Below are positions 3,485-60,970 of a stretch of DNA of 64,000 bases, one piece after another (within the stretch, counting starts at the first letter, position 1; each line of letters begins with the position of its first letter). Below the pieces are notes generated by a model. It saw only the letters and a program-made list of their open reading frames with translations. It did no database searches and had not been told where the DNA came from. This DNA comes from a virus, in the IMG/VR virus record IMGVR_UViG_3300030060_007200; one strand, 5' to 3'. Both the position numbers and the translations under genes were made by a program.

Positions 3485-3536
3485 TTAAGATTCCCTATTC
3501 TACTTTTATATAAATATCAAGAAGTAAGCTCTTTAA

Positions 3537-15165: not shown

Positions 15166-15199
15166 CTATATATAAATATATATGTATATAAAAGTTATA

Positions 15200-30644: not shown

Positions 30645-30677
30645 TCATTATTCCCGATATTATATAAATATCAATAA

Positions 30678-55670: not shown

Positions 55671-56536
55671 GATTTGCTTGGTGGTTGGTTAGAACTATAT
55701 ACCAATGTATATATTACCTTGCCATCTAAATCTTCTTTGATTCTTATTTCAGAATCCACAATTCCTAGTTTTTCTATAATTGTTTGAAGCCTAGATATTT
55801 TTTCAGAATCATAATTGCTTATACAAATATATTCACCAATAATTGTTACAACCATATTGTTGTAGTCATATCTTTTTTCGAATAAATTATATACCTCTTC
55901 ATCTAAAACAGGTACTAAAGGTAAATCATGTATAAGTCTTTCTGAATAATATTTTTGATTTTTTATGTCTAAATTTTCAAACCACTTTTTGAATGATGTA
56001 TAATCACCTTCAAAAATATTTTTGTCATTGTCTTTCATTAACGACCACATCTCTACAGTTGTTAATGCCTCGGGTATATATTTTTTATCTTTACCCATTT
56101 TCCAAGTACCATCTTTATTCGATTCGAAGTTTGTTCTATATTGCTTAAATAAATTTATTAAATTATCTATAGAATTCAACCCCTGTCTATTTGTATCTTT
56201 TATTTTAGGTGGCACATAATCTGAGTATGTATTGTCTAACGTTATTTCCTTAATAAGTTTTGTTAAACCTTTTTTACCAGAATCTAATAAATTTTTTAGT
56301 TCCTGGCATTTTTCGTATTCTTCTGTTTCAATAAAATAATCTATGATGTCATTTAGAATATCAGTAAGTTCTTTTACATCTAGACTAAATGGGTCGTATA
56401 ATATATAATGCGTTTCATTACCTGCTACGGCGAAGTTATCGATTTTTGATTTACCGGTAACTAACCTATAGGTATTTAGAAATGCTACATCCAAACCTTC
56501 AGTGTTTAATTCTTGTGATTCATACGATTCCATCAT
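55667..56536 (-). CDS. Hypothetical protein with a UVR-like motif
   Basis: IETEEYEKCQELKN. Confidence 0.7.
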   Translation of the reverse strand: MMESYESQELNTEGLDVAFLNTYRLVTGKSKIDNFAVAGNETHYILYDPFSLDVKELTDILNDIIDYFIETEEYEKCQELKNLLDSGKKGLTKLIKEITLDNTYSDYVPPKIKDTNRQGLNSIDNLINLFKQYRTNFESNKDGTWKMGKDKKYIPEALTTVEMWSLMKDNDKNIFEGDYTSFKKWFENLDIKNQKYYSERLIHDLPLVPVLDEEVYNLFEKRYDYNNMVVTIIGEYICISNYDSEKISRLQTIIEKLGIVDSEIRIKEDLDGKVIYTLVYSSNQPPSKS

Positions 56537-56558
56537 ACTCCAATTATTTATTTTGTTA

Positions 56559-56792
56559 CCTCTAACCTCCGAAGCTTATACGGTGTGCTTCTTCTACCGT
56601 TGGTTTAGGGTGCCTTATCAGGCAGCCATCGCCATTTCAACTTGTGCGCCAGTTATGCGTTGAACTTCCTTATATCCTTTTCACCGTGTCAAATCCAGTC
56701 ACCCCCATGTTTTAACCTAAATCTTCTTGTGGAGGTGGAGGGTATCGAACCCTCGTCCAACAATGCAGCTAATATAAGTAATAGCGTTCAAA
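56559..56792 (-). ncRNA. ssrA: Circularly permuted (two-piece) tmRNA; tag (A)GAQVEMAMAA
   Basis: Acceptor piece GGAC-GAGGG-UUCGAUA-CCCUC-CACCUCC-A (56758-56730) lies upstream of the 5' strand GGGGGUG-ACUGGAUUUGAC (from 56706). G3-U70 pair present; tag ORF at 56650-56618. Confidence 0.92.
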
Positions 56793-56800
56793 TATAAATA

Positions 56801-57028
56801 TCACTTCTCTACCTGTTTTTTAGGTTTTCTTCTATAAGTTCTGCGATTATTTTTAGGTGCAGATTTCCTAGAATTTTTTCCAAGTGATTTGATTTCGTTT
56901 TTTAGTAATTCATTTACTAGAATTTTATCTTCTAATAATTGTTTAACTGTAACGAATCTTTTGTTTAGATATAGTACTGTTCCTAATATACCTAAACCAA
57001 ATGCTAGTATTACTGATAATGTTATCAT
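56801..57028 (-). CDS. Small membrane-anchored basic protein
   Basis: N-terminal TM helix; K/R-rich tail. Confidence 0.7.
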   Translation of the reverse strand: MITLSVILAFGLGILGTVLYLNKRFVTVKQLLEDKILVNELLKNEIKSLGKNSRKSAPKNNRRTYRRKPKKQVEK

Positions 57029-57300
57029 TTCTTATACCCTTTCCATGTTCCTGTTCCCTCTTCAAGCATGCCAAGTCTTTGTCCTACTTTATACATTTTC
57101 TGCATATCATACATAGTCTCTATAACTCTATTTGTTTCAGAGAATGTTAATTCAATTCTCTTACCATCTATAAAGAATGTACCGATTAAAGGTTGATTAG
57201 CATCTCCTTGCGGACGTAATGCTTTAGCTCCTTTCATTAACTCACAGTCAATTGTTGACCAAACTTTCCCATACTTTTGGGGATTAAATTTCTTTGCCAT
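57025..57300 (-). CDS. Hypothetical protein
   Basis: 91 aa; A-rich leader with no SD. Confidence 0.7.
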   Translation of the reverse strand: MAKKFNPQKYGKVWSTIDCELMKGAKALRPQGDANQPLIGTFFIDGKRIELTFSETNRVIETMYDMQKMYKVGQRLGMLEEGTGTWKGYKK

Positions 57301-57461
57301 GTTTTATTTTTTTTAGCAAATTATGTCTACTCTTTTACATTTAGGATTTTCGACTTTCTCCTTAGAATTATCTAATATATTATTTTAATTTATTAGTTAA
57401 TTATTATATTAGTATACTAATTATTAGTATTATTAGTAATTACTATTATTAGTTTTTTACT

Positions 57462-60932: not shown

Positions 60933-60970
60933 TATAAATATAATAAAAATATACGACATATGAAAGGATT
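60933..60970 (-). promoter_or_regulatory. Early-type promoter of the DNA ligase gene
   Basis: Minus strand AATCCTTTCATATGTCG...TATTATATTTA. Confidence 0.6.

Follow-up and report, generated by a model that had tools for sequence, protein, structure and literature searches.

A predicted two-piece tmRNA without pseudoknot 1 in an uncultured phage, most likely of marine Flavobacteriia

The locus and its phage

On the minus strand at 56527-56821 of the window, by which we mean the whole 64,000-nt stretch of viral DNA that was analysed, ARAGORN reports a permuted tmRNA gene (tmRNA*) with the tag GAQVEMAMAA followed by two stops, and this is the only gene that it reports in the whole window. Rfam 15 agrees: the model tmRNA_permuted (RF04321) is matched over its full length (1-213) at 67.4 bits against a gathering score of 47, with E = 7.9e-11 for the window, and in the gene the acceptor 5' half comes downstream of the acceptor 3' half and its T-arm. 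Given this E-value and the tmRNA* call, the signal is far beyond chance. None of the models for the alpha, beta and cyano permuted lineages (RF01849, RF01850, RF01851) reaches its gathering threshold on the window RNA; the best of them, beta_tmRNA, is the sole other tmRNA model to appear at relaxed thresholds, with 47 bits against a gathering score of 84 and a partial match (model positions 76-171) that takes in the tRNA-like domain only. A preliminary description, made from the letters of the sequence, had proposed a permuted two-piece tmRNA at this place and had named these two kinds of search as checks; both find the gene, covariation and cofolding agree with them, and every helix that it named is present where it had been placed. 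The features are as follows, all on the minus strand.

56793-56801: promoter-like motif ATATTTATA, directly upstream of the acceptor piece
56730-56791: acceptor piece (Rfam RF04321 alignment, ARAGORN, covariation, cofold)
56791-56786 with 56665-56660: helix Ha, GUUCAA/UUGAAC (covariation)
56778-56771 with 56676-56669: helix Hb, GAUAUAAG/CUUAUAUU, 8 bp (covariation)
56765-56760 with 56687-56682: helix Hc, ACGGUG/CAUUGU (covariation)
56754-56750 with 56742-56738: T stem GAGGG/CCCUC, T loop UUCGAUA
56737-56731: 3' strand of the acceptor stem, CACCUCC (sequence)
56730: discriminator A; CCA not encoded
56707-56729: intervening segment, 23 nt (sequence)
56560-56706 (3' end approximate): coding piece (ARAGORN, RF04321, alignment, covariation, cofold)
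56706-56700: 5' strand of the acceptor stem, GGGGGUG, with the G3:U pair; start of the coding piece
56660-56687: 3' strands of the inter-piece helices Hc, Hb and Ha; 9 of 20 pairs changed on both sides
56651-56659: linker CGCAUAACU, 9 nt from the last helix to the resume codon, with U(-5) A(-4); no PK1
56615-56650: tag template GGC GCA CAA GUU GAA AUG GCG AUG GCU GCC (GAQVEMAMAA) and UGA UAA (ARAGORN)
56650: first base of the resume codon GGC; ten codons, then UGA UAA at 56620-56615
56608-56627: helix-5-like hairpin (GG..GCC / GGC..CC) around the stop codons; 5 pairs, 100% paired
56571-56600: single H-type pseudoknot; S1 and S2 both covary
56600-56596 with 56584-56580: pseudoknot stem S1, ACGGU/ACCGU; 3 pairs with double changes
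56591-56587 with 56575-56571: pseudoknot stem S2, GAAGC/GCUUC; variants stay complementary

The acceptor piece thus holds the 5' strands of the three inter-piece helices, the T-arm, the 3' strand of the acceptor stem and the discriminator A, and the coding piece holds the acceptor 5' strand, a D-loop analogue, the 3' strands of the helices, the tag template, the hairpin, the pseudoknot and a G-rich tail. Sequence, RF04321 alignment and cofold all give the same tRNA-like domain, with a 7-bp acceptor stem carrying G3:U70, a T-arm with a GUUCGANNC-type loop and the D-loop analogue. RNAcofold places the two predicted pieces at -60.0 kcal/mol together versus -44.2 for the pieces alone, and it reproduces the acceptor stem, all three inter-piece helices and the T-arm. 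All three of these helices had been described before, the second of them with one pair fewer than the 8 bp that it has, and the UGCC/GGCA hairpin of the earlier account is extended by two more outer G-C pairs. The missing CCA is confirmed, and it is likewise absent from the host-type, one-piece genes of Bacteroidota. The intervening segment, which is weakly conserved and about 14-23 nt long in relatives, is expected to be lost when RNase P cuts 5' of G56706 and the acceptor piece is trimmed at its 3' end. The coding piece has no defined 3' end. No terminator lies between the tmRNA and the next ORF at 56536, so that this end would presumably come from processing or read-through. A pairing of the G-rich 3' tail (GGAGG/GGUGG) with the CACC after the hairpin was considered and dropped, being inconsistent between sequences.

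The motif ATATTTATA is found 20 times in the window where 4.2 copies are expected, a 5-fold excess, and 18 of the copies are on the minus, coding strand (3509-3517, 15171-15179, 30663-30671 and 60933-60941 among them). Fifteen of these 18 are intergenic, mostly 18-34 nt before an ATG, and in most relatives the copy upstream of the tmRNA is kept. This is probably a promoter element of the phage's own. The preliminary description had called it a late motif, and while its recurrent, promoter-like character stands, the late class is not justified, because the 18 copies on that strand include ones before the terminase and DNA ligase genes.

What kind of phage is this? All large ORFs of the window are on the minus strand, the G+C content is about 33%, and the PHROGs matches comprise a major head protein, portal, large terminase, baseplate wedge and ATP-dependent DNA ligase. 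The cultured relatives are distant: Microcystis phage Mel-JY01 is the nearest by terminase (61% identity), Flavobacterium phage vB_FspM_immuto shares 53% identity in terminase and 46% in capsid, and further away come Rhodothermus phage RM378 and then the T4-like cyanophages and pelagimyophages; a megablast of the 14 kb around the gene against cultured phages gave no match. Mel-JY01 (PP395634.1, our record L164) itself groups with the flavobacterial and Rhodothermus phages, not with the cyanophages. Most likely, then, the window is part of the genome of a large uncultured myophage of marine Flavobacteriia. The permuted tmRNA is absent from the nearest cultured relatives (the Flavobacterium immuto phages, Mel-JY01 and LR756508), which leaves this exact family without a cultured model; because the immuto phages and Mel-JY01 do without it, the gene is dispensable for phages of this kind. 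As a separate observation, the Rfam motif DUF805b matches at 57324-57363 on the minus strand (37.8 bits versus a gathering score of 35.6, E = 4e-07), within a 211-nt gap upstream of a 91-aa ORF (57025-57300) that has no Pfam match of its own.

Relatives, covariation and the missing pseudoknot

A strict pattern (T-arm and acceptor 3' strand, 10-40 nt, then GGGGGTGA) retrieved 39 IMG/VR contigs and a looser one 41, nine of them new, which makes 48 related viral contigs from many metagenomes, all with the gene order of the window. ARAGORN calls tmRNA* in most of them, and the tags that it reads include GEQVEMAMAA, GEQVELAMAA, GAQVEMAMAA, (G)EHVEMAMAA and GEQVEYAMAA. The constancy of the T-arm and acceptor stem in this set is imposed by the search pattern and is not independent evidence. 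Across an alignment of 30 relatives, the 42 pairs of the structure set out above are paired in 96% of cells and 13 of them are changed on both sides, a degree of covariation that 0 of 500 shuffles reached, and when the 3' partners are slid the pairing falls to 44-50%. Nine of the compensatory pairs lie in the three inter-piece helices (20 bp in total) and three in pseudoknot stem 1, and the stop-codon hairpin shows a switch from C-G to U-A that splits the relatives 11/12. Stem 2 of the pseudoknot, which was extracted sequence by sequence with a script since MAFFT had misaligned it, occurs as GAAGC/GCUUC, GGGC/GCCC, GGGAU/AUCCC, GAGAC/GUCUC and GAGGU/ACCUC, and is always complementary. Two other readings of the same alignment were set aside: RNAalifold, run on the raw alignment, missed the terminal helix and stem 2 through the MAFFT misalignment, and short 'helices' driven by G-U pairs in an all-against-all column scan were treated as noise. 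The check in related phages that had been proposed at the outset therefore comes out in favour of the inter-piece helices, the stop-codon hairpin and the single pseudoknot after the tag, both stems of which covary; the two pieces are joined by pairings that evolution has maintained.

A tag frame of ten codons and a stop, opening on GGC, is present in 30 of 30 relatives; codons 7, 9 and 10 vary among Ala synonyms only, codon 6 is Met or Leu (CUA or UUA), and the stop may be TAA, TAG or TGA. Variation of this sort reads as the signature of a translated frame. There is no start codon, the hydrophobic C-terminus ends in AA, the stop codon sits in a hairpin, and the base at -4 of the resume codon is A in all 30 relatives, mostly after U. 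The counterpart of U(-5) A(-4) in E. coli is U85-A86, of which A86 is essential and chiefly decides the frame (PMC2481249).

Helix Ha, which covaries, is followed after just 9 nt (9-13 in relatives) by the resume codon, and for this reason PK1 is absent, as the preliminary description had said. The distance from the first G of the coding piece to the resume codon bears this out, at 55-59 nt in 30 of 30 relatives versus 93-97 nt in Bacteroidota one-piece tmRNAs and, among alpha-type phage tmRNAs, 81 nt in Melnitz and 75 nt in HTVC008M. PK1 is nearly universal in bacterial tmRNAs, and in a 2005 survey Oenococcus oeni and one plastid were the only cases without pk1 (PMC1168896); the coding piece of known two-piece tmRNAs typically places the tag between an upstream PK1 and a downstream PK2 (PMC3985003). 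In E. coli, PK1 can be replaced by unrelated sequence without loss of activity (PMC2481249), which makes its loss here functionally plausible by analogy. The absence could also signal reduced or altered activity.

Several smaller features of these RNAs deserve a mention in their own right. The internal loops of the acceptor piece (GCUAKUA at 56779-56785 and AGCUR at 56766-56770, minus strand) are nearly invariant in the 30 relatives and hold the complementary segments GCUA/UAGC, whose pairing fits the data with 0 double changes. At 56638-56655 (minus strand), UAACU/AGUUG could form a 5-bp hairpin enclosing the resume codon; it is formable in 30 of 30 relatives, with little variation, and a helix of a similar kind around the resume codon has been discussed for E. 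coli mutants (PMC2481249). Many marine relatives (L014, L016, L018, L029 and L036-L038) carry a conserved hairpin, AGAGGGU ... ACCCUCU with a 12-nt loop, about 40-80 nt downstream of the tmRNA; it is missing in the window, where the next ORF comes straight after the gene. Lastly, two marine IMG/VR contigs (L002:296-605 and L025:431-740) contain a more reduced permuted variant that ARAGORN missed, with the resume codon at 58 nt, the tag GKVINLFSAPVRLAA and, after the tag, no pseudoknot and only a terminator hairpin.

Origin and mode of action

Taking these lines of evidence together, we put the probability that the gene is a functional circularly permuted, two-piece tmRNA of a marine, broadly T4-like myophage, most likely one that infects Flavobacteriia, at about 85%.

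Its ancestry can be approached through the two halves of the tRNA-like domain. The 29-nt T-arm and acceptor 3' half was tried as a tracer of the donor and rejected, since the same 29-mer is found in one-piece tmRNAs of many phyla and is not diagnostic; no genuine permuted copy is among the 119 bacterial contigs listed with it. The first 20 nt of the coding piece, looked up in the same 119 listed genomes of many phyla, are 100% identical only in Cytophagaceae, Porphyromonadaceae and Muribaculaceae and 90% identical only in Rikenellaceae and Porphyromonadaceae, all of them Bacteroidota. The one-piece tmRNAs of this phylum resume at GGC GAA after UAAYU, have tags ending in AA and do not encode CCA, so the preliminary description was right to recognise a Bacteroidota-type Gly resume. 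Because both halves of the tRNA-like domain, the GGC-GAA resume and the missing CCA match the Bacteroidota one-piece genes, and alpha-type controls differ, we think it rather likely that the compact, PK1-less lineage arose from a Bacteroidota one-piece tmRNA, separately from the permuted lineages of alpha, beta and cyano type. The matching sequences are of course short, and convergence on host factors may be an alternative explanation. The separate origin proposed in the preliminary description accordingly finds support as an inference. Its placing of the permutation in this one phage does not, because annotated crAss-like and Chryseobacterium phages have it in common.

Acquisition by transfer from a known permuted lineage (alpha, beta or cyano), with later remodelling for a Bacteroidota host and no independent permutation, is the strongest competing explanation of that ancestry, and we consider it unlikely. 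Being so short and so well conserved across phyla, the tRNA-like domain can hold little phylogenetic signal, the best of the older Rfam models is beta_tmRNA with its partial 47 bits on that very domain, and marine T4-like phages with alpha-type two-piece tmRNAs live in the same environment (PMC9004378), all of which a transfer would accommodate. The beta_tmRNA match, however, is confined to model positions 76-171 and lies far under the gathering score of 84. The alpha-type phage genes of Melnitz and HTVC008M, used as positive controls, match alpha_tmRNA (RF01849) over its full length with passing scores of 107 and 84 bits, have a different T-loop, encode CCA and resume at GCA (tags ANDNY... 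and ANFNEYALAA); the window gene, with both domain halves, GGC-GAA resume, upstream UAAYU and missing CCA, sides with the Bacteroidota one-piece genes instead.

How might a tmRNA of Bacteroidota type, reduced in this way, work? Transcription would start from the phage's promoter-like motif, a few bases before the acceptor piece; host RNase P would cleave 5' of G56706, and host 3' trimming and the CCA-adding enzyme would finish the acceptor piece at A56730. A 5' junction of RNase P type and a 3' end like that of a tRNA suggest processing into two RNAs, and a dependence on RNase P, 3' trimming and CCA addition would follow from the anatomy of the RNA. The resulting acceptor piece of ~65 nt and coding piece of ~150 nt would be held together by the 7-bp acceptor stem and the three helices (20 bp). 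Host AlaRS would charge the molecule by way of G3:U70, and host SmpB and EF-Tu would deliver it to stalled ribosomes, where translation would resume at GGC, placed by the conserved U-A at -5/-4, and add A-GAQVEMAMAA, a degradation-type tag ending in AA. Processing, charging, tagging and any benefit to the phage are deduced from sequence; that benefit probably lies in keeping ribosomes available when mRNAs are cut or the host's RNA synthesis fails.

The reliance on host SmpB is well supported by the genomes at hand, because smpB is found neither in the window nor in complete or near-complete relatives. In the window, which for the source phage covers part of the genome only, tblastn with four SmpB proteins of Bacteroidota/Ignavibacteria gave a best E-value of 0.46, confirming the earlier report that no smpB is present there. 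The SmpB Pfam model has no match in the complete genomes of MA9V-3 and cr114_1 (both compared below), in a relative of 153 kb (87% complete) whose tag belongs to the same family, in a 100%-complete 93-kb relative, or in eight partial gene-carrying relatives (23-69% complete).

It is improbable, in our judgement, that the RNA acts as a decoy instead, its host-identical tRNA-like domain titrating host SmpB, AlaRS or EF-Tu and so inhibiting host trans-translation. The idea has a proposed precedent in the RNA of mycobacteriophage DS6A, which consists of a tRNA-like domain only, and a molecule of that design strongly inhibits tmRNA (Hudson et al. 2014, PMC4131195); both halves of the domain are identical here to host-type tmRNAs, PK1 is missing, and the more reduced relative on L002 and L025 does without any pseudoknot. 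A decoy needs no tag, and yet 30 of 30 relatives keep the 10-codon frame, the stop, A(-4) and the C-terminal AA, three codons changing only synonymously, and covariation is seen in both the stop-codon hairpin and the pseudoknot. An inert remnant (an attachment-site duplicate or host gene fragment), or the assembly artefact joining two tmRNA ends that the preliminary description had warned of, can be dismissed as extremely improbable, for although tmRNA genes are common integration sites with fragments known in prophages (PMC9004378), 48 independent viral contigs show the pieces in this order and at this spacing, as do RefSeq crAss-like genomes and a cultured Chryseobacterium phage, compensatory changes keep every variable helix, the tag frame is kept, the gene stands behind the phage's own recurrent promoter-like motif, and no integrase was found with PHROGs and Pfam among the 19 window ORFs scanned, tmRNA neighbours included.

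Our preferred reading, of a working two-piece tmRNA of Bacteroidota descent, can be widened into a more ambitious proposal, to which we give slightly better than even odds: that there is a fourth, phage-borne lineage of permuted tmRNA, spread over Bacteroidota phages from gut crAss-like podoviruses to marine flavobacterial myoviruses, of Bacteroidota one-piece origin and independent of the alpha, beta and cyano lineages, which works without PK1 (in some members without any pseudoknot) and is, among natural designs of a tag-encoding tmRNA, the smallest. Should these RNAs function as predicted, the minimisation of tmRNA has already been carried out by nature, and trans-translation with host SmpB would need no more than a tRNA-like domain, a helix 2 in three parts, a 9-nt linker with the conserved U-A, a 10-codon tag, a hairpin and one pseudoknot at most. 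That would bear on the purpose of PK1 and on the placement of the resume codon, and would offer a compact natural scaffold for engineering. Permuted tmRNA would also gain one more independent origin, in this case on phages and across unrelated families that infect one host phylum, pointing to strong selection for phage-supplied ribosome rescue in Bacteroidota. The 2025 tmRNA database tabulates 48 instances of 'permuted' matches in Bacteroidota assemblies (PMC11915505), and these may be phage genes and not contamination.

Comparison with known tmRNAs

The closest kin of the gene among cultured and deposited phages came from BLAST of the region, which matched Chryseobacterium phage MA9V-3 (PV245944.1) in a gene annotated as tmRNA; ARAGORN finds it permuted, with the tag GNVIDINKYVAKLEVAA. 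A search with the MA9V-3 gene led on to crAss-like Suoliviridae, namely cr114_1 (NC_055897.1), cr50_1 (MT774375.1), cr125_1 and cr10_1, annotated in RefSeq as 'transfer-messenger RNA, SsrA'; both of the two crAss-like genes that were examined are permuted, and both pass RF04321. These genes and that of MA9V-3 (RF04321 scores of 50.9-64.7 bits) share with the window the permuted gene order, the Gly resume, a resume codon 58-61 nt from the 5' end and the lack of PK1. The likeness to cr114_1, where the resume codon is at 58 nt, extends to the terminal helix (UUGAC/GUCAA in cr114_1), the resume context AUAACU|GGC and a pseudoknot (ACGGC/GUCGU with AGCU/AGCU) of the same design. In contrast, the crAss-like and MA9V-3 tags (GNFYVTDYTRIAA, GNNFVTDYTAIGA, GNVIDINKYVAKLEVAA) are longer and unrelated in sequence, and their spacers, of 57 to about 200 nt, are much longer; the phages also come from other families and habitats, gut podoviruses and a wastewater phage standing against a marine myophage. 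The traits by which we delimit the compact lineage were drawn up in this analysis from the same sequences, and the window RNA has all of them: a Gly resume codon that lies 55-61 nt from the 5' end, absence of PK1, a helix 2 in three parts with UUGAY/RUCAA as its end, and no more than one pseudoknot after the tag.

The crAss-like loci have peculiarities of their own. In cr114_1 (NC_055897.1) a tRNA-His gene (L161:1565-1637) sits inside the intervening segment of the tmRNA, between the acceptor and coding pieces, and a few hundred bases upstream of two crAss-like permuted tmRNA genes there are matches to RAGATH-9 (153.7 bits, L161:1041-1208) and RAGATH-22 (155.6 bits, L162:857-1023).

Permuted tmRNAs have a longer history in bacteria. 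Keiler et al. reportedly described the two-piece tmRNA of Alphaproteobacteria (Caulobacter) in 2000, Sharkady and Williams are said to have added some Betaproteobacteria in 2004, and two-piece tmRNAs also occur in some Cyanobacteria. The window gene resembles all three in being permuted, in having its pieces joined by acceptor stem and helix 2, and in its intervening segment, which tRNA-processing enzymes remove in the bacterial cases and are predicted to remove here. Unlike these bacterial RNAs, for which PK1 before the tag is typical, it has no PK1, and its tRNA-like domain and resume context are of Bacteroidota type.

Phages, too, are known to carry such genes: of 133 distinct phage tmRNAs, 53 come in two pieces, and these are mostly marine (PMC9004378). 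Like the window phage, Methylophilales phage Melnitz and Pelagibacter phage HTVC008M are marine T4-like myophages that encode a permuted tmRNA with no phage smpB reported (Buchholz et al. 2022, PMC9004378), and their genes are likewise found by ARAGORN and RF04321. To the differences in model, resume codon, CCA and T-loop given above, Melnitz adds a glutamine riboswitch at the 3' end of its tmRNA. Cellulophaga phage Calle, in contrast, has an ordinary one-piece tmRNA.

One-piece tmRNAs of Bacteroidota, for example those in MAGs of Cytophagaceae, Muribaculaceae and Porphyromonadaceae (L128, L136, L145, L154), are identical to the window gene in the first 20 nt and in the 29-nt T-arm and acceptor 3' half. 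They differ in design: they are 368-414 nt long, with PK1 and further pseudoknots, and the window RNA is permuted, about 210 nt long and has a single pseudoknot.

The exceptional novelty claimed at first has to be given up, as phage two-piece tmRNAs have been published (Melnitz and the pelagimyophages; PMC9004378), members of the lineage are already annotated in RefSeq, and standard tools detect the gene. The 2025 tmRNA database, which built RF04321, includes 79 phage sequences and discusses three permuted clades only (PMC11915505); within an incomplete coverage of the literature we found no paper on a Bacteroidota-phage or PK1-less permuted lineage, and the RefSeq records carry the label 'tmRNA' only. 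What is new is apparently the lineage as such: undescribed, borne by phages, of Bacteroidota type and naturally without PK1.
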